A DNA stretch of 30,507 nt from an uncultured Rikenella sp. (GTDB taxonomy: Bacteria > Bacteroidota > Bacteroidia > Bacteroidales > VadinHA17): positions 1-30,507 of the forward strand of contig CAZHAI010000001.1 of NCBI GenBank assembly GCA_964530645.1. Direction: 5' to 3'. Positions 22,345-30,507 of the stretch are shown piece after piece. Positions within the stretch are counted from its first letter, which is position 1; each line of letters starts with the position of its first letter. Both the position numbers and the translations under genes were made by a program. Under the pieces are notes generated by a model, which worked only from the letters and a program-made list of their open reading frames with translations, had not been told where the DNA came from and did no database searches.

Positions 22345-22986
22345 TTAACAGTTGTCTGCATCCAGGGACCTCAGCAATAAAGCTCGGGTCCCTGGTCCGT
22401 TATTCAGGAGCAGGTCGATGATGCTCATCCCCGGGGTGAAACCGTGTCTTTCACCGAAGACCTGCGTGTACGGGATGTCTGAATAGCCTGCAATTTCTGA
22501 CTGTCTCTTCGGGGTGATGCTATAACGGTAATCATTCACCAGGCTGCCTTCGGGCTCGAATTTATCGGTATAATCAATCTGCACTCCCAGACCCAGTGCA
22601 TCGCAAACTGCGCCAAGCGCGGCGGTGTTCAGATCAAACAGGAAGCTGTACTGCCTGGTGATGACATCCCTGATAAGGTCATAGTAGTACTCGAAAAAAG
22701 GGGCAGCGGCATAAGCCGATGTTATACTCCCCAGGTGCTGCTCACGCCACCTTTTGCTCCCGTCAATCTCCAGCCCGCTTATGGGAGTCTTGTGAAATGA
22801 GCCCCTAAGAACAGGAACGATCAGGGGGAGGGAGCCGTTTGCTCCCATTATTATGCACCTGTTGCGGTAAGTCTGCCTGTGATAATTCTCGCATCTCTCG
22901 ATGATCACCCTTCTGCTCTTCGCTATGAGGCTGAAATACTCAGCGGGAGGGAAATATGCGGTGGAGAGAAGAACCTCCTCAGTCAT
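22345..22986 (-). CDS. WbqC-family protein
   Basis: STAYFPP, ENYHRQTYRNRC.I, W...H..SI.SAY..APFFEYY, Y.QVF...HGF.PGMSIIDLL.N.GP. Confidence 0.9.
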   Translation of the reverse strand: MTEEVLLSTAYFPPAEYFSLIAKSRRVIIERCENYHRQTYRNRCIIMGANGSLPLIVPVLRGSFHKTPISGLEIDGSKRWREQHLGSITSAYAAAPFFEYYYDLIRDVITRQYSFLFDLNTAALGAVCDALGLGVQIDYTDKFEPEGSLVNDYRYSITPKRQSEIAGYSDIPYTQVFGERHGFTPGMSIIDLLLNNGPGTRALLLRSLDADNC

Positions 22987-22991
22987 CTAAT

Positions 22992-23738
22992 TCAGAGGCT
23001 GTTGATCCGGCTTGCAGCAAAGCCTGCCCCGAACCCGTTGTCAATGTTCACCACTGTAACTCCTGCAGCACAACTCGTCAGCATGGCAAGAAGGGCTGAA
23101 ATGCCTTCAAACGACGCACCATATCCAACACTTGTAGGAACTGCGATCACCGGCATGTTCACAAGACCTCCGATTACGCTTGCAAGCGCACCTTCCATGC
23201 CGGCTATCACAACAGTTACCTTGCATGAGCGTATCTCAGGCAGCTTGTCAACCAGCCTGTGTATGCCGGCCACCCCGGCATCGTAGATCCTTACCACATC
23301 ATTGCCGAGAAGTTCGGCAGTGACTGCAGCTTCTTCAGCAACCGGGATGTCAGAGGTGCCTGCAGTGATTATAGCAATCTTTGTGGCCGGAGGAGTGATC
23401 TCCTTTCTCCTGATGCTGATTATGCGTGCAATCTCGTAGTAGACGGCATCTGGGAACGAGGGAGCTATGTAATCAAACATCTCTTTTCCTGCCCTTGTAC
23501 CTATTATATTATTGCCATGCCCTTCCATTGCATGAAAAATGGCCCTCACCTGCTCCGGCGTCTTGCCGGCGCAGTAAACTATCTCCGGATAACCCGTCCT
23601 GAGCTCACGGTGATGGTCAATGCGCGCGAATCCAAGGTCAGTATAAGGAAACTCTTTCAGCTTCTCCATGGCCTCCTCCACACTGACCGATTTGTTCCTG
23701 ATACCGTTTAGTATCTTCTCAAGCTCTGCTGCATTCAT
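22992..23738 (-). CDS. larB: NPN cofactor biosynthesis protein LarB (NaAD carboxylase/hydrolase)
   Basis: DHHRELRTGYPE, AGTSD.PVAEEA, DAGVAGIHRL, AGMEGAL, PTSVGYG, MLTSCAAG.VVNIDNGFGA. Confidence 0.95.
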   Translation of the reverse strand: MNAAELEKILNGIRNKSVSVEEAMEKLKEFPYTDLGFARIDHHRELRTGYPEIVYCAGKTPEQVRAIFHAMEGHGNNIIGTRAGKEMFDYIAPSFPDAVYYEIARIISIRRKEITPPATKIAIITAGTSDIPVAEEAAVTAELLGNDVVRIYDAGVAGIHRLVDKLPEIRSCKVTVVIAGMEGALASVIGGLVNMPVIAVPTSVGYGASFEGISALLAMLTSCAAGVTVVNIDNGFGAGFAASRINSL

Positions 23739-23740
23739 TA

Positions 23741-24529
23741 TTATTCCGTTTTATTCATGCTTCCGGTGCGGTAACCCTCAGCATCGATAGTAACATATTT
23801 GAAACCCAATGCCCTGATGGCTTCTGACAGGTTCACGCGCGTTTCCGTTATGGCCATCCGCTCGAAGTGTCCGGCTCTCAGCTCAATTCTGACAAGTTCA
23901 CCGTGCACTCTCACCCGGGCTCCGGGAAATCCTGCTGCTGTCACCAGGTTTTCAGCAGCCTCTGTTCTGCGCAGATCGCCCGTATTAATAACAGTATCAT
24001 GAGGGAACCTTGTCAGCAGGCAGGCATTTGACGGTTTGTCGCTTACCTCAAGTCCTGCTTCCCTGGCATATGCCCTTATCTCCGTTTTTGTGAGTTTGGC
24101 TTCAGCAAGAGGACTTCTGACACCGGCCTCCTTAAGAGCTTTCAGTCCGGGACGATACTCTTTGAGATCGTCGGCGTTTGTGCCGTCAAAGACGAAGGCA
24201 TATCCGTCATCACGAGCTGAGGCTGTAACCGCCTTCATCACCTCTGTCTTGCATAGATAACAGCGGTCCGGCGGATTGGAAAGCACCGCGACAGGGATCC
24301 CCAGCCCAAGTATCCTGTGCGTTACTCCGGCCTTCCTGCAGAAATGTCCGGCATCATCAACCTCTGAAGAGAACATGTACGGAGTGCTGACGGTTACAGC
24401 CATGACCCTGAGACCAGGAACGCCTGCGGCTACACTCACAAGAAAGGTGCTGTCAGTACCACCTGAAAGGGCGATCACAGCTGAACCGGCCTCCGCAAGG
24501 ATGGCCCTGAGGTTTTCGAGCTTATCCAT
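23741..24529 (-). CDS. larE: NPN cofactor sulfur transferase LarE (CxxC...C type)
   Basis: PP-loop LSGGTDS; RCYLCK (C90, C93); DGTNADD...YRPG; KPSNACLLTR (C170); RVRVHG; GYRTGSMN. True start is MDKLENL at 24529; the ORF-track extension to 24619 lies inside larC. Confidence 0.94.
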   Translation of the reverse strand: MDKLENLRAILAEAGSAVIALSGGTDSTFLVSVAAGVPGLRVMAVTVSTPYMFSSEVDDAGHFCRKAGVTHRILGLGIPVAVLSNPPDRCYLCKTEVMKAVTASARDDGYAFVFDGTNADDLKEYRPGLKALKEAGVRSPLAEAKLTKTEIRAYAREAGLEVSDKPSNACLLTRFPHDTVINTGDLRRTEAAENLVTAAGFPGARVRVHGELVRIELRAGHFERMAITETRVNLSEAIRALGFKYVTIDAEGYRTGSMNKTE

Positions 24530-24534
24530 TTGAC

Positions 24535-25896
24535 TTATTCCTTTCCGGTGAAAAGTGCCGATATCTCCTGCATTACCTGCTTCATCGGAAGGCCCGTCGC
24601 TGCTGCAATGGCTGCGCACCTGTCTGCCTCGGGCTTTACTGATACAAGCCTCTCACCGAAGAATGATTTTTTGATAACCACCTTCCCGAAACGGGTGTCA
24701 ATCTCCTCAAATTCCCTTTGCAGTGTCTCTTTGGTGAAGGGGGTGACTCTAAGACCGATTGTTGTTGATTCGGTAAACAGTATCTCCCTGACCGCATTTA
24801 GCTGGTCCTCTTCGCAGATGACGCTGAGAGTGAAGGCGGGCCTTCCCTTCTTCATTATGACAGGTGTATACCATACGTCGCCTGCACCCGCGGAAAAGAG
24901 TCTTCCTGTAAGGTATTCCGACAGTTCGGGGTTCATGTCATCAACATTGCACTGAACGAGCAGAGCCTGGTGACCCATGCCATGCTCCTCCGCAGTCTCA
25001 GCCAGATACACCCTGAGCATGTTTGGCCGCGATGGGTTGTCTTTGTGACCTATCCCGTAGCCGCTCTTCCTTATGATAAGATTCATTGATTGAGGAAGCG
25101 GCTCAGCCATCGCCGCTATTATTGCTGCCCCTGTCGGGGTTGTGGCCTCGAAACTTACTCCGCCGGTATGTACCGGGAAACCGCTGATTATTCTGGCAGT
25201 GGCCGGTGCTGGGACGGGCAGCAGGCCGTGCTTGCATTTCACCATGCCTCCACCGAGCTCAACAGCTGAAACATAAACCTTATCAACTCCAAGATCATCA
25301 AAACAGATTGCAGCTCCTACAATGTCAACGATTGAATCAATGGCTCCGACCTCGTGAAAATGAATCTCCTCTAGCGGTTTGTTGTGAACTGCTGCCTCCG
25401 CCTCCGCAATGTGACGGAAGATCTTCATTGACAGCTCTTTCACAGACAGGGGAAGGGTACTTGCATTAATTATCCTTTCGATGTCAGCCAGGTTCCGGTC
25501 AGGGTGGATCTCGTGGCCATGGCCATGGTCGTGGCTGTGGCCGTGCTCGTGGTCGTGCGCATGGTCCTGTTCATTGTCGTGCACATGGTCGTGCACATGG
25601 TCGTGGCTATGGTCATGCTCGTGGTCGTGCAAATGGTCGTGCTCGTGGTCGTGCAAATGGTCATGCTCGTGCTCGTGGAAATGCTCGTGATCCTCCACAC
25701 CTTCAGCAATGACTTTGACTTTGGTGCCTGCAATGCCGTGACGCTGGTCACGTGTAATCTCCAGCCGCCACCCTACTGTATTTAACTTCTGCAGGCCGCT
25801 GATCAGGGTCTCGCGACTGACACCCAGGTCTAGCATGGCCCCCAGGTTCATGTCGCCGCTTATGCCGGAAAAGCAGTCGTAGTACAGTATCTTCAT
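24535..25896 (-). CDS. larC: NPN cofactor nickel insertase (CTP-dependent cyclometallase) LarC, single uninterrupted ORF with His-rich insert
   Basis: DCFSGISGDM, HFHEVGAIDS, HG.LPVPAPAT, TPTGAA, NVDDMNPE, MKKGRP, ESTTIG.R, KPE. Confidence 0.95.
   Translation of the reverse strand: MKILYYDCFSGISGDMNLGAMLDLGVSRETLISGLQKLNTVGWRLEITRDQRHGIAGTKVKVIAEGVEDHEHFHEHEHDHLHDHEHDHLHDHEHDHSHDHVHDHVHDNEQDHAHDHEHGHSHDHGHGHEIHPDRNLADIERIINASTLPLSVKELSMKIFRHIAEAEAAVHNKPLEEIHFHEVGAIDSIVDIVGAAICFDDLGVDKVYVSAVELGGGMVKCKHGLLPVPAPATARIISGFPVHTGGVSFEATTPTGAAIIAAMAEPLPQSMNLIIRKSGYGIGHKDNPSRPNMLRVYLAETAEEHGMGHQALLVQCNVDDMNPELSEYLTGRLFSAGAGDVWYTPVIMKKGRPAFTLSVICEEDQLNAVREILFTESTTIGLRVTPFTKETLQREFEEIDTRFGKVVIKKSFFGERLVSVKPEADRCAAIAAATGLPMKQVMQEISALFTGKE
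25504..25689 (-). repeat. His-rich (HX)n tandem repeat within larC
   Basis: 29 His in 62 residues; 24-nt units at 25624-25647 and 25648-25671 (23/24 identical); perfect 12-nt duplication at 25576-25599. Confidence 0.92.
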
Positions 25897-25964
25897 TCTT
25901 TTTTAGTTTTTTTAACAATCGGCGCCCTGCCCGCATAATCGCTTGCGCCCGTGCTCTCAGGCTG

Positions 25965-26012
25965 CTAATATAAGAATACGGAGCCGATATATTGAAAAAA
26001 ATGTTTACTTTG
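25965..26012. promoter_or_regulatory. Candidate back-to-back promoters in the larC/DUF362 divergent region
   Basis: TATATTAG on - (25965-25972) and TTACTTTG on + (26005-26012), each with one mismatch to TAnnTTTG. Confidence 0.3.
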
Positions 26013-26050
26013 CATCTTCTCTTTTTAGGGGTAATATCTAACAGCAGGGA

Positions 26051-26977
26051 ATGAAAAGACGAAATTTCTTAAGGAGTTCGCTTGGTGCCGGACTGGCGGC
26101 AGGTACGTTCATGAGTTTTGGCAGGTACGAACAGGCATTTGCAGGAAAAAGACTGCCGGCAGGCGCCGATTATGACCTCATCGCAGTGATGGGAGGGGAG
26201 CCTGCAGCTATGTTTGACATGGGTATTCAGGCGATGGGAGGCATGGGGAGCTTCGTGAAAAAAGGGCAGAAAGTGCTGGTGAAACCCAATATAGGATGGG
26301 ATGTTGTGCCTGACAAGGGTGCAAACACAAACCCCGCCCTCGTTAAAAGGATAATCGAGCACTGCTACAGGGCAGGAGCAAAAGAGGTATATGTATTTGA
26401 CAACACCTGTGACAACTGGATAAAGTGCTACAAGAACTCCGGGATAGAACAGGCTGTGAAGGACGCGGGTGCAAAGATCGTCCCTGCAAATTCGGAGAGC
26501 TACTACCAGGAGGTTTCTATCCCCAACGGCAAGAAGCTGACGAAGACCAAGGTTCATGAGCTGGTTCTGGAGAGCGATGTCTTCATAAACGTACCTGTCC
26601 TGAAACATCACAGTTCAGCCATGATGACAGGAGCCCTTAAAGGGATGATGGGAGTTGTCTGGGACCGTGGATACTGGCACAGGAATAATCTCAACCAGTG
26701 CATCGCTGACTATGCGCTTTACCCGAAGAAGCCGCAGCTGAACGTTCTTGATGCTTACAACGTCATGATGCGCAACGGTCCCCGCGGTGTCTCAGTGGCT
26801 GACCTCTCCGCCATGAAATCACTTATGATCTCAACCGACTGGGTGGCAATCGATGCTGCCGGAGCAAAAATGATGGGCAAGGAGCCCTCATCAATAGAGC
26901 ATATTGCACTTGCTGCCGGAATGGGCATCGGCAAGATGGATCTTGCAGCAATGAATATCCACAGGATGAAAATGTAA
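26051..26977 (+). CDS. DUF362-family protein with Tat signal peptide
   Basis: MKRRNFLRSSLGAGLAAG twin-arginine leader; DUF362 motifs VLVKPNIGW, TNPALV, FINVPVLKHH...TGALKGMMG, D.VAIDA. Confidence 0.88.
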   Translation: MKRRNFLRSSLGAGLAAGTFMSFGRYEQAFAGKRLPAGADYDLIAVMGGEPAAMFDMGIQAMGGMGSFVKKGQKVLVKPNIGWDVVPDKGANTNPALVKRIIEHCYRAGAKEVYVFDNTCDNWIKCYKNSGIEQAVKDAGAKIVPANSESYYQEVSIPNGKKLTKTKVHELVLESDVFINVPVLKHHSSAMMTGALKGMMGVVWDRGYWHRNNLNQCIADYALYPKKPQLNVLDAYNVMMRNGPRGVSVADLSAMKSLMISTDWVAIDAAGAKMMGKEPSSIEHIALAAGMGIGKMDLAAMNIHRMKM

Positions 26978-26983
26978 CCCTGA

Positions 26984-28546
26984 ATGAGGTCCTCCGCCCT
27001 GAAACATATCCGAACCGTTTTTGCAGTTTTAATGCTGCTTCTGTTTGCATTTCTCTTCATTGATTTCAGGGGTCTTCTCGGGGAAAAGGCTTTTGCCCCT
27101 ATACTCTACCTGCAGTTCGTTCCCTCTTTCCTTAAATTTGTTATTGCGGGTGTGGCCGCCTCAACGGGCTTCATTGTGGTTTTGGTACTCACCGCACTTA
27201 CAGGCAGGACATACTGCTCGTTCCTCTGTCCCCTGGGGATACTGCAGGACGGCATCAGTCGTGTGGGAGGGCTTTTCAAGAGACGCTTCCGCAAATACGG
27301 ATACAAAAAGCCCTATACGATTCTGCGCTATTTTATCCTGGTGGTTACAGCAGCGATCCTGGCAGTCGGAGGCGTTTATGTCCTTACAATTCTTGACCCG
27401 TACAGCACCTTTGGCAGGTTCATGACCTATTTTGCGCAGCCTGTCGTACTCTTTATAAATAACCTGCTGGCATCCATCCTTGGTAAATTTGACATCTATA
27501 CAATTTACCGTGTTGACATTAAGCCTTATGAACTTGCTGTTTACATAGTTCCATCAGCATTCCTCCTGCTTGTCGGCATACTCTCATTCAGATACGGACG
27601 GCTCTACTGCAACACTGTCTGCCCGGTGGGAACACTTCTGGGGTTGCTGAGCAAGGTTTCGCTTTTCAGGATAAGGTTTGAAGATGAAAAGTGCACACGA
27701 TGCGGCCGGTGCGCAATGTCATGCAAATCATCCTGCATCGATTTCCTCAACAAGAGCGTCGATCTCAGCAGGTGCGTCAACTGCTTCAACTGCATTGACT
27801 CATGCAAGGAGAACGGCATGTCATATGGCCTGGTCCGGTTTAAGAAACCAGCCGCAGGTGAAGTCGGTACTGATCCGTCCAGGCGCAGTTTCATTGCCGG
27901 TTCACTGGTTCTGCTTGCCGGAGGATCTCAGCTGGTCAGGGCTCAGGGTACAACTCCCGCCCCCACAAAAGATTCCACAGTGAAGGAGGACAGGCTCTAC
28001 CCTGTTTCACCTCCGGGATCAGCAGGGCTTGAATCATTCACATCACGGTGCACCGCATGCACCCTCTGCGTCAACGCCTGCCCCACCAACGTACTCCAGC
28101 CTTCAGTAAGTGAATACGGATTTGCGGGAATCATGCAGCCCAGGATGGACTTTCACAGCGGCTTCTGCAACTATGACTGCAACCGCTGCACAGACGTCTG
28201 TCCGACCGGTGCCATAATGCCCCTCATGATTGAAGCCAAGAAGCTTACCCAAATCGGCAAGGCAGTCTTTATCAAGGATAATTGCATAGTCCATACCGAA
28301 AAGACAGCCTGTGGGGCGTGCTCCGAACATTGCCCTACCAAAGCATGCCACATGGTTCCCTATGAGGGCAAGCTGCTTATTCCGGAAGTAAGGGATGAGA
28401 TATGCGTCGGCTGCGGCGCTTGCGAATATGCCTGCCCGACAAGACCGTTCCGGTCCATCTTTGTTGACGGGAACCCCCTTCATGAAGCAGCCATCAAACC
28501 CGAGACGGAAGAGATGGAGGCAGTGCCATCCGAATTCCCCTTCTGA
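26984..28546 (+). CDS. Membrane polyferredoxin (NapH/MauN-like membrane domain fused to NapG/MauM-like multi-[4Fe-4S] domain)
   Basis: Several N-terminal TM helices; two CxxxCP motifs (YCSFLCP, YCNTVCP); six ferredoxin-type Cys clusters; internal SRRSFI plus hydrophobic segment. Confidence 0.9.
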   Translation: MRSSALKHIRTVFAVLMLLLFAFLFIDFRGLLGEKAFAPILYLQFVPSFLKFVIAGVAASTGFIVVLVLTALTGRTYCSFLCPLGILQDGISRVGGLFKRRFRKYGYKKPYTILRYFILVVTAAILAVGGVYVLTILDPYSTFGRFMTYFAQPVVLFINNLLASILGKFDIYTIYRVDIKPYELAVYIVPSAFLLLVGILSFRYGRLYCNTVCPVGTLLGLLSKVSLFRIRFEDEKCTRCGRCAMSCKSSCIDFLNKSVDLSRCVNCFNCIDSCKENGMSYGLVRFKKPAAGEVGTDPSRRSFIAGSLVLLAGGSQLVRAQGTTPAPTKDSTVKEDRLYPVSPPGSAGLESFTSRCTACTLCVNACPTNVLQPSVSEYGFAGIMQPRMDFHSGFCNYDCNRCTDVCPTGAIMPLMIEAKKLTQIGKAVFIKDNCIVHTEKTACGACSEHCPTKACHMVPYEGKLLIPEVRDEICVGCGACEYACPTRPFRSIFVDGNPLHEAAIKPETEEMEAVPSEFPF

Positions 28547-28638: not shown

Positions 28639-29061
28639 ATGAAACCTACACATATTGAACATATTGGAATTGCGGTAAATTCAATTGCCGAGGCCCTCCC
28701 TTTCTATGAAAAGGTGCTTGGCCTGAAATGCTACAACATAGAGGAGGTGGCTGACCAGAAGGTGAAGACCGCTTTTTTCATGATCGGGCAGACGAAGATC
28801 GAGCTGCTCGAGTCGACCGACCCTGAAGGACCAGTAGGCAAATTCATCGAGAAGAGGGGCGAGGGAATCCATCATATTGCATTTGCTGTTGACCGGATTG
28901 AGGAGAGGCTTCGCGAGGCAGAAGCTTCCGGCATCAGGCTCATCGATTCTGCACCGAGGAAGGGCGCGGAGGGACTCAGTATCGCATTCCTTCATCCGAA
29001 GTCGACTTTCGGAGTGCTTACCGAGCTTTGCGAGGACAAGAATAGCGAAAACAATAAATAA
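28639..29061 (+). CDS. mce: Methylmalonyl-CoA epimerase
   Basis: IEHIGIAV, KIELLE, KFIEKRGEGIHHIAF, AFLHPKST.GVL.EL. Confidence 0.95.
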   Translation: MKPTHIEHIGIAVNSIAEALPFYEKVLGLKCYNIEEVADQKVKTAFFMIGQTKIELLESTDPEGPVGKFIEKRGEGIHHIAFAVDRIEERLREAEASGIRLIDSAPRKGAEGLSIAFLHPKSTFGVLTELCEDKNSENNK

Positions 29062-29070
29062 CAAGGTTCA

Positions 29071-30507
29071 ATGAACAGTCAGGAAAGAATTAAACAACTC
29101 CTTGATTTCAGGGATAAGGCACGCAAAGGCGGTGGAGACAAACGAATTGAAGACCAGCACGCCAAAGGCAAGCTGACGGCAAGGGAACGCATTACCCTGC
29201 TGCTTGACGAAGGCAGCTTCGAGGAGTTTGACATGTTTGTAACCCACAGGACCGAGGACTTCGGGCTGGCAGACAAGAAGTTTCTCTCTGACGGCGTGAT
29301 TACCGGCCACGGTACAATAGACGGAAGGGTGGTCTATGTCTTTGCACAGGATTTCACTGTCTTCGGAGGATCCCTTTCGGAAACATTTGCCCAGAAGATC
29401 TGCAAGATAATGGACAAGGCCATGCAAGCCGGCGCACCGGTCATCGGCATCAATGACTCAGGCGGCGCACGCATCCAGGAGGGAGTCAGAAGCCTTGCAG
29501 GTTACGCCGAGATTTTTGAACGTAACATCCTTGCCTCGGGCGTCATACCCCAGATATCAGCCATCTTTGGCCCCTGCGCCGGAGGAGCCGTCTATTCACC
29601 CGCATTGACTGACTATATAATCATGAGCCGCAAAAGCAGCTACATGTTCGTCACCGGTCCCAAGGTTGCAAAAGCAGTGACAGGTGAGGATATTACAATT
29701 GATGACCTTGGTGGTGCCGGAGTCCATACTACCAAATCAGGCGTGGCTCATTTCGCCGTTGATGAGGAGAAGGAGGGGCTTGAACTGATCAGGAAACTTC
29801 TGGGTTTCATGCCTCAGAATAACCTCGAGGAGCCGCCTCAGGTTGAATGCGATGACCCAATCGACAGGCTGGAGGACGAACTGAACGATATTATTCCGCA
29901 AAATCCCAGCCAGCCATATGATGTCAAGGATGTCATTGTAAGGGTGGTTGATTATAATGATTTTCTCGAGGTTCATGAAGCCTATGCAAAAAACATCGTT
30001 GTAGGTTTTGCAAGGTTTGACGGCATGCCCGTCGGTATAGTGGCAAACCAGCCCGCATACCTCGCCGGAGTGCTCGATATCGAGGCTTCGCGCAAGGCTG
30101 CACGCTTCATTCGCTTCTGTGACGCATTCAACATCCCGATAGTGACCTTCGTCGACGTGCCCGGTTTCCTCCCCGGATCAACCCAGGAATACGGCGGCAT
30201 AATCATCCATGGCGCCAAACTGATGTACGCATACGGCGAAGCAAACGTGCCGAAGGTGACCGTCACCCTCCGCAAATCATACGGCGGAGCCCACTGCGTG
30301 ATGTCATCAAAACAGCTTAAAGGCGATATCAACTATGCATGGCCTACAGCTGAGATAGCAGTTATGGGTCCGCAGGGCGCAATTGAGGTCCTGGAGGGCA
30401 AAGCCATCAGTGAAATTGCTGACGCAGGTGAGCGCAAGGAGTATGTGGCCAAAAAGGAACAGGAGTACCGCGATAAGTTCGCAAACCCCTATGAGGCAGC
30501 AAAATAT
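29071..30507 (+). CDS. Acyl-CoA carboxyltransferase (methylmalonyl-CoA decarboxylase alpha subunit / PccB-like), 3'-partial
   Basis: Absent from the ORF track because it has no stop in the window. Translated by hand from ATG 29071: MNSQERIK...[23 protein letters not shown]...DGVITGHG...[10 protein letters not shown]...[11 protein letters not shown]...GPCAGGAVY...DVPGFLPG. Open for 479 codons to the edge. Confidence 0.93.

Follow-up and report, generated by a model that had tools for sequence, protein, structure and literature searches.

[quoted passage not shown] In LarA, His108 and His174 are the catalytic histidines, Lys184 is the covalent NPN tether, His200 is the nickel ligand, and Asp72 (ribose) and Arg75 (phosphate/substrate) form a further motif (PMC12611868 for the NPN-binding residues). 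A single-histidine LarA subfamily (PDB 9Q3J and 9Q3K) keeps the NPN-binding residues with only one catalytic His and acts on an unknown substrate that is not lactate; its members are full-length, cytoplasmic DUF2088 proteins that keep His108 and lose His174 (PMC12611868). It has been known since 2014 that many genomes make the cofactor without having LarA: about 15% of genomes have larBCE without larA, and their clients are largely unknown (PMC11796402). Only two non-LarA users have been reported so far, namely the aldo-keto reductase homologue NphT, which was found through gene adjacency and a conserved Lys/His pair, and an NPAD-dependent ornithine cyclodeaminase cited in the same paper (PMC13524815). 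NphT has an unrelated TIM-barrel fold, is cytoplasmic and has no Fe-S partner; neither user is exported or coupled to Fe-S clusters. A +450 Da adduct is seen for LarA and NphT (PMC13524815). The other system relevant here is the NapG/NapH quinol dehydrogenase module, together with MauM/MauN and NosG/NosH. DUF362 (PF04015) shares Pfam clan CL0471 with DUF2088, and Desguin's group used DUF362 only as an outgroup (PMC11770544). Among the papers retrieved by a search for DUF362, none proposes a function for PF04015, and we found no paper that proposes the reading developed below.

We analyzed a window of 30,507 nucleotides (contig CAZHAI010000001.1, assembly GCA_964530645.1) from a 65%-complete Bacteroidales metagenome-assembled genome (MAG) of an uncultured Rikenella sp. 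In this window, a gene for a DUF362 protein lies between a divergent lar operon and a gene for a membrane polyferredoxin. The features are as follows.
22345..22986 (-): WbqC-like gene, last gene of the lar operon, role unknown (PF08889, E 1e-38); syntenic in the whole clade
22992..23738 (-): larB (NF033503, E 7e-89, above cut-off)
23741..24619 (-): larE (TIGR00268, E 4e-80, above cut-off)
24535..25896 (-): larC, LarC1 plus LarC2 with a His-rich insert (PF01969, E 2e-140; TIGR00299 and NF052512)
25897..26050 (no strand): 154-bp divergent intergenic region between larC and the DUF362 gene
26051..26143 (+): Tat signal peptide of 31 aa, with KRRNFLR motif, h-region L11-G24, R25 and A29-F30-A31 cleavage site
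26144..26977 (+): mature DUF362 domain with a predicted LarA N-domain fold, stop codon included
26609..26611 (+): His187 codon, aligned with LarA catalytic His174
26639..26641 (+): Lys197 codon, aligned with LarA Lys184, the covalent NPN tether
26678..26680 (+): His210 codon, aligned with LarA His200, the Ni ligand
26984..28546 (+): 520-aa membrane polyferredoxin; a NapH-like half with TMs, two CxxxCP motifs and two cytoplasmic 4Fe-4S motifs, and a NapG-like half with four 4Fe-4S motifs
27881..27886 (+): internal twin arginine (R300 R301) ahead of hydrophobic segment 303-318, a relic Tat signal or signal anchor of the NapG-like half
28514..28543 (+): C-terminal tail of the polyferredoxin (..VPSEFPF; consensus ExFPF), predicted to dock in a groove of DUF362

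The original prediction described a Tat leader on a DUF362 protein that has only four scattered Cys and no ferredoxin motif, and this observation is confirmed. The ORF at 26051-26977 (+) encodes 308 aa beginning with MKRRNFLRSSLGAGLAAGTFMSFGRYEQAFA, followed by GK. The twin arginine sits in K2-R3-R4-N5-F6-L7-R8, close to the S/T-R-R-x-F-L-K consensus; the h-region is short, weakly hydrophobic and Gly/Ala-rich (13-14 residues, L11-G24; KD 1.37 over 13 residues), R25 provides a basic c-region residue, and A29-F30-A31 is an AxA peptidase site followed by G32. The signal peptide is therefore three bases longer than the range first given (26051-26140). Cys residues occur only at positions 105, 120, 126 and 217, with no CxxCxxCxxxC motif. 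Pfam gives DUF362 at E 3e-52 (178 bits against a cut-off of 24, residues 75-272 covering profile positions 1-199 of 200) and nothing else. The leader is a family trait: nearly all of the 150 nearest 50%-identity cluster representatives start with an RRxF motif, and in the 121 full-length ones R3, R4 and F6 are kept in 115, 107 and 105, respectively. TatC is encoded in this MAG (contig C177, E 2e-69) and in five relatives. The neighboring operon is also real, with larC, larE, larB and the WbqC-like gene all scoring above the curated cut-offs, and with larC starting 154 bp from the DUF362 start and running divergently. An Rfam search of the whole window found nothing, so there is no riboswitch in the divergent intergenic region. 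The WbqC-like protein showed no similarity to the ATP-grasp-like gene that follows larB in a polysaccharide gene cluster described below.

To identify the fold, an AlphaFold2 model was built with 86 relatives (pLDDT 94). Foldseek's 19 best PDB hits and the 12 best from VIA-align are all LarA-family structures. In the 12 VIA-align matches, Z is 16-18 and the rmsd 2.7-3.2 Å, with model residues 47-278 lying on LarA residues 33-270; the best match reaches Z 18.0 and rmsd 2.7-2.9 over about 207 residues (9EID/9EIA/5HUQ), whereas the next fold scores Z 5.6. The matched region of LarA is the N-terminal NPN-binding domain. The LarA C-terminal domain has no counterpart, as the protein ends about 30 residues after the N-domain equivalent. 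Homology at the sequence level is not significant. PDB searches with the single protein and with a profile found no relative, there is no Lar_N (PF09861) hit for the protein or in the genome, hhalign in global mode gave a meaningless alignment, and local mode aligned the His/Lys block only at E 0.019-0.066 with probability under 3%. The homology claim therefore rests on structure and clan, and the residue match rests on order, spacing and conservation.

The near-invariant polar residues are K78, N80, T93, D117, D176, N180, K185, H187, K197, R206, H210, D234 and D268. In the local profile-profile alignment, H187, K197 and H210 (93%, 94% and 92% conserved in the 121 representatives) fall on LarA His174, Lys184 and His200, with spacing 10 and 13 against 10 and 16. 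This assignment rests on alignment only. Of the two LarA catalytic histidines only the His174 equivalent is present, the reverse of the single-histidine LarA subfamily; the His108 region reads D117-N-T-C120. The strand equivalent to the Asp72-x-x-Arg75 motif carries the near-invariant K78-P79-N80, with no D-x-T-R.

We next compared 62 related loci from GTDB species genomes. The DUF362-polyferredoxin pair is kept throughout, down to 44% identity. The divergent larC-larE-larB(-wbqC) block is present in 44 of them, all Bacteroidales/Rikenellaceae-like and at least 61% identical; because the whole 15-kb region is syntenic in these loci, adjacency in this clade counts as a single event. A second, independent arrangement was found in G169, a 100%-complete Melioribacteraceae MAG in which DUF362, napH-like, napG-like, larC, larE and larB lie in this order on one strand with gaps under 20 nt, bounded by unrelated genes. 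The cultured isolate Saccharicrinis aurantiacus likewise has DUF362-napH-napG-larC-larB, with larE elsewhere. No LarA was found in either of these two genomes. On a DUF362 tree, the two lar-linked groups are separate, well-supported clades (SH-aLRT 99 each) with many unlinked lineages between them, indicating that linkage to lar genes arose at least twice.

A family-level signal was sought in an even sample of 301 genomes of the phylum. A DUF362-family protein is carried by 28 of the 32 LarB-positive genomes, against 27 of the 269 LarB-negative genomes. A cytoplasmic 375-420-aa subfamily with the same His-x9-Lys-x12-His block occurs in 24 of the 32 LarB-positive genomes and in 1 of the 269 others. 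In one family of 63 genomes (f22), only two genomes have LarB, and the same two are the only ones with DUF362, a 480-499-aa form directly upstream of larC-larE-larB inside a polysaccharide gene cluster. Among 14 control genomes, DUF362 was reported in five at the default threshold; four of these also have LarB and LarC hits, and two of the four, Synechococcus elongatus and Haloferax volcanii, are not among the controls with LarA hits. Relatives share labels, and thus these counts, which cover one phylum and the 14 controls, overstate independence; even so, the pattern recurs in unrelated families.

However, 22 of the 36 sampled genomes with a strong Tat-DUF362 orthologue plus polyferredoxin have no LarB, and all 22 are at least 99% complete. 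Five of these, from five families, were tested for LarC and all lack it, and nine of ten further genomes lack LarB. The lar-less species with the protein include the cultured Dysgonomonas hofstadii and Macellibacteroides fermentans. The candidate NPN residues are identical in LarB-positive and LarB-negative genomes. Taken at face value, this says that the family does not need NPN. The same test would also "disprove" LarA, as 12 of 30 genomes with LarA homologues lack LarB although those homologues keep all six LarA residues. Absence of lar genes is therefore weak evidence in this phylum, and is an unexplained fact in itself. In addition, four of five close relatives of this MAG (G311, G312, G314 and G315) carry a LarA homologue with all six LarA residues elsewhere in the genome, which could be a conventional client of the lar operon; it is not adjacent to the lar genes, and the fifth relative (G313) has none.

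The most constant companion of the gene, which the original prediction did not mention, is the polyferredoxin that starts seven bases downstream of the DUF362 stop. It follows the DUF362 gene in 47 of 49 loci compared and also in distant metagenomic relatives. A search for a conserved third gene across all loci found only an antisense shadow ORF and lineage-specific neighbors; a BLASTP comparison of one 168-aa membrane protein with an ECF-like protein of Dysgonomonas showed no similarity. The polyferredoxin shares the domain plan of NapH/NapG (Fer4_5 twice, six cluster motifs, a NapG/NapF-like C-terminal half) but scores far below the equivalog cut-offs (TIGR02163, 82 against 213 bits; NF007012, 52 against 269), and its two halves are fused. 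R301 of the internal twin arginine is invariant in the family alignment. In G169 and S. aurantiacus the two halves are separate genes, and the second begins MDKSRREAIKKGF, its own Tat signal; the C-terminal half is therefore almost certainly periplasmic.

We then modeled DUF362 residues 32-308 with polyferredoxin residues 325-520 and four 4Fe-4S clusters. The ipSAE was 0.61 (runs 0.57, 0.61 and 0.63), against 0.00 for the best of three controls. This mark was reached by 58 of 80 solved complexes and by 2 of 110 mismatched pairs, although the calibration holds only roughly here because our own alignments and riding ligands were used. The runs agree in at least 86% of contacts and the partner's pLDDT is at least 91. 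The confident contacts are the last ten residues of the polyferredoxin (511-520), lying in a groove of DUF362 formed by residues 45-47, 253-257, 269-276 and 298-305. This supports binding but does not show it.

Based on these data, we propose that the ORF encodes a periplasmic enzyme that is a shortened relative of lactate racemase, consisting of the N-terminal cofactor domain only. In this view, NPN is attached to Lys197, its nickel is completed by His210, and His187 serves as acid/base. Because the cofactor must be installed in the folded protein, export would proceed through Tat; a Tat leader is otherwise unexplained for a protein without an Fe-S, flavin or Moco motif. In the periplasm, the protein would dock on the NapG-like four-cluster domain of the polyferredoxin, partly through the conserved ExFPF tail, and the NapH-like membrane half would connect to the quinone pool or to cytoplasmic donors. 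The pair would thus couple hydride chemistry at NPN to one-electron transfer, making it a net oxidoreductase of unknown substrate and not a racemase, and the polyferredoxin would serve a DUF362 protein rather than a nitrate or nitrous-oxide reductase. The analysis itself establishes the Tat leader, the modeled fold, the residue conservation, the gene pairing and the lar linkage in two arrangements, while NPN binding, Tat-dependent export, the docking geometry, the direction of electron flow and the substrate are inferred. The original interpretation, that a cofactor loaded in the cytoplasm is exported and that NPN from the adjacent operon is the nearest candidate, is partly supported: the Tat logic is sound, and NPN is a much better candidate than adjacency alone suggested, but it remains unproven. 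We regard this as the best single explanation (probability about 0.55), bearing in mind that no NPN enzyme is known to be exported or to hand electrons to Fe-S clusters.

A less likely but serious rival is a periplasmic redox enzyme or subunit that works with the polyferredoxin without NPN, carrying another cofactor loaded in the cytoplasm or a metal ion held by the conserved His/Lys/Asp residues, while the lar operon serves a LarA homologue or another client and the adjacency is incidental or merely regulatory. The lar-less orthologues, the sporadic lar adjacency around a conserved DUF362-polyferredoxin unit, the LarA homologues of close relatives and the weak hhalign scores favor this view. 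It does not explain, however, why lar genes were joined to this gene pair twice in different orders, including operons in two genomes where no LarA was found, nor the co-occurrence of DUF362 with LarB.

An atypical Fe-S cluster on the four Cys, which the original prediction gave as its alternative, would explain Tat export and the link to an Fe-S partner, and Pfam notes that DUF362 occurs in some Fe-S proteins, through fused Fer4 domains. C105 and C120 are invariant among the 36 pair-associated orthologues, but C126 is Ser/Thr in five and C217 is Ala/Lys in three; in the 121 wider representatives the four Cys are kept in 86/51/44/35%, there is no cluster motif, and the invariant polar residues are His/Lys/Asp/Asn rather than Cys. 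A cluster on all four is therefore unlikely. Also unlikely is a non-enzymatic role as an assembly or escort factor for the periplasmic domain of the polyferredoxin, such as a partner in Tat co-export or a stabilizer bound to its C-terminal tail. The strict gene pairing and the tail-centered predicted interface are compatible with this role, but about 15 near-invariant polar residues cluster at the LarA-equivalent active site, DUF362 domains also occur without this partner, in cytoplasmic forms and in forms beside lar genes, and the polyferredoxin has its own twin-arginine motif.

A broader speculation, which we consider doubtful, is that DUF362 as a whole is the missing second branch of the LarA clan, made up of NPN-dependent oxidoreductases that pass electrons to Fe-S partners. 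These would account for many orphan larBCE sets, for example in cyanobacteria, haloarchaea and polysaccharide clusters, and the Tat-exported form would be the first extracytoplasmic NPN enzyme. Organisms that keep the enzyme, or a LarA homologue, without lar genes would scavenge NPN or a precursor, perhaps through the ECF S-component-like genes found beside the DUF362 gene in lar-less lineages.

If the NPN assignment fails, the result still defines a widespread two-gene periplasmic module, Tat-DUF362 plus a NapH/G-like polyferredoxin, of unknown function. If it holds, a DUF362 client would add a very large family to the users of the cofactor, as well as the first exported NPN enzyme, which would make Tat a carrier of an organometallic Ni-C cofactor. 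It would also be the first case of NPN wired to Fe-S clusters and the respiratory chain, which would extend NPN chemistry from internal hydride shuttling to net redox catalysis.

In the window, the features surrounding or overlapping the DUF362 gene were as follows:
22345-22986 (-), WbqC-like (PF08889) gene
24535-25896 (-), LarC gene, with an insert at about residues 68-128 of the product
26069-26611 (-), 180-aa antisense ORF inside the DUF362 gene
26984-28546 (+), polyferredoxin gene, with the internal twin-arginine at 27881-27886
28639-30507 (+), glyoxalase-fold protein (methylmalonyl-CoA epimerase-like) and carboxyltransferase

The WbqC-like gene is the last gene of the larC-larE-larB operon and is syntenic throughout the clade. 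Its product is not similar to that of the ATP-grasp-like gene that follows larB in the polysaccharide cluster of genome family f22, described below. LarC carries a roughly 60-residue His/Asp/Glu-rich insert (HEHFHEHEHDHLHDHEHDH...), presumably a nickel store. The larE product has a CxxC (CYLC) plus a third Cys (NACLL) and, judged from sequence alone, resembles the [4Fe-4S]-type, non-sacrificial LarE that is reportedly the theme of PMC9283937. The polyferredoxin has an invariant internal twin-arginine before a fifth hydrophobic segment and looks like a NapH-NapG fusion, the periplasmic Fe-S half of which would need Tat-type insertion within a polytopic protein; the split form exists in the Melioribacteraceae genome G169 and in Saccharicrinis. 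The antisense ORF recurs in 26 related loci only because it shadows the conserved DUF362 gene, and it is not a gene. The downstream glyoxalase-fold protein and carboxyltransferase are housekeeping propionate-pathway genes, syntenic in the clade and unrelated to the finding.

In lar-less Melioribacteraceae/Ignavibacteria, a 168-aa membrane protein (locus L045, 7302-7808 (-), with homologues in loci L048, L109-L111, L113, L114, L117, L120, and L124) lies divergently beside the DUF362 gene. Its AlphaFold2 model (pLDDT 83) best matches ECF S components (RibU, PanT, BioY, and ThiT), with VIA Z scores of 11.7-8.2 and about 150 of 167 residues aligned, but with a Foldseek E-value of only 0.3. A BioY gene sits in the same position in the loci of genome family f25, as do an ECF_trnsprt-like gene plus a small PRTase in Dysgonomonas. 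A paralogue of the DUF362 protein in genome G213 (second copy; locus L141, 7047-7949) keeps the Tat motif but has lost K78, H187, K197, R206, and H210, which are now V, N, Q, G, and Y, respectively. It has no polyferredoxin neighbor and is a degenerate or re-purposed copy.

Two further forms of DUF362 were found in other genomes of the phylum sample. A cytoplasmic subfamily of 375-420 aa, seen in loci L150-L153 (genomes G009, G133, G089, and G281) and at about 20 more places, has the block KCH-x9-K-x12-H and an aromatic-rich C-terminal extension. This subfamily is present in 24 of 32 LarB+ genomes and in 1 of 269 LarB- genomes. It is not adjacent to lar genes. In genomes G210 and G218 of family f22, a 480-499-aa DUF362 protein lies directly upstream of larC-larE-larB (locus L147, 6593-10863, and locus L148, 6945-11230) inside a polysaccharide (glycosyltransferase/acetyltransferase) gene cluster, and these are the only 2 of 63 genomes of that family that have either LarB or DUF362.

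We also examined LarA homologues in other genomes (loci L078-L093 and L103-L106). These proteins of 420-440 aa keep D72, R75, H108, H174, K184, and H200, and many of them sit next to a PfkB-type sugar kinase. They occur in 12 of 30 LarA+ genomes that have no LarB, all of which are at least 99% complete; one of these, G277, also has no LarC. These LarA homologues are clients without a cofactor pathway.
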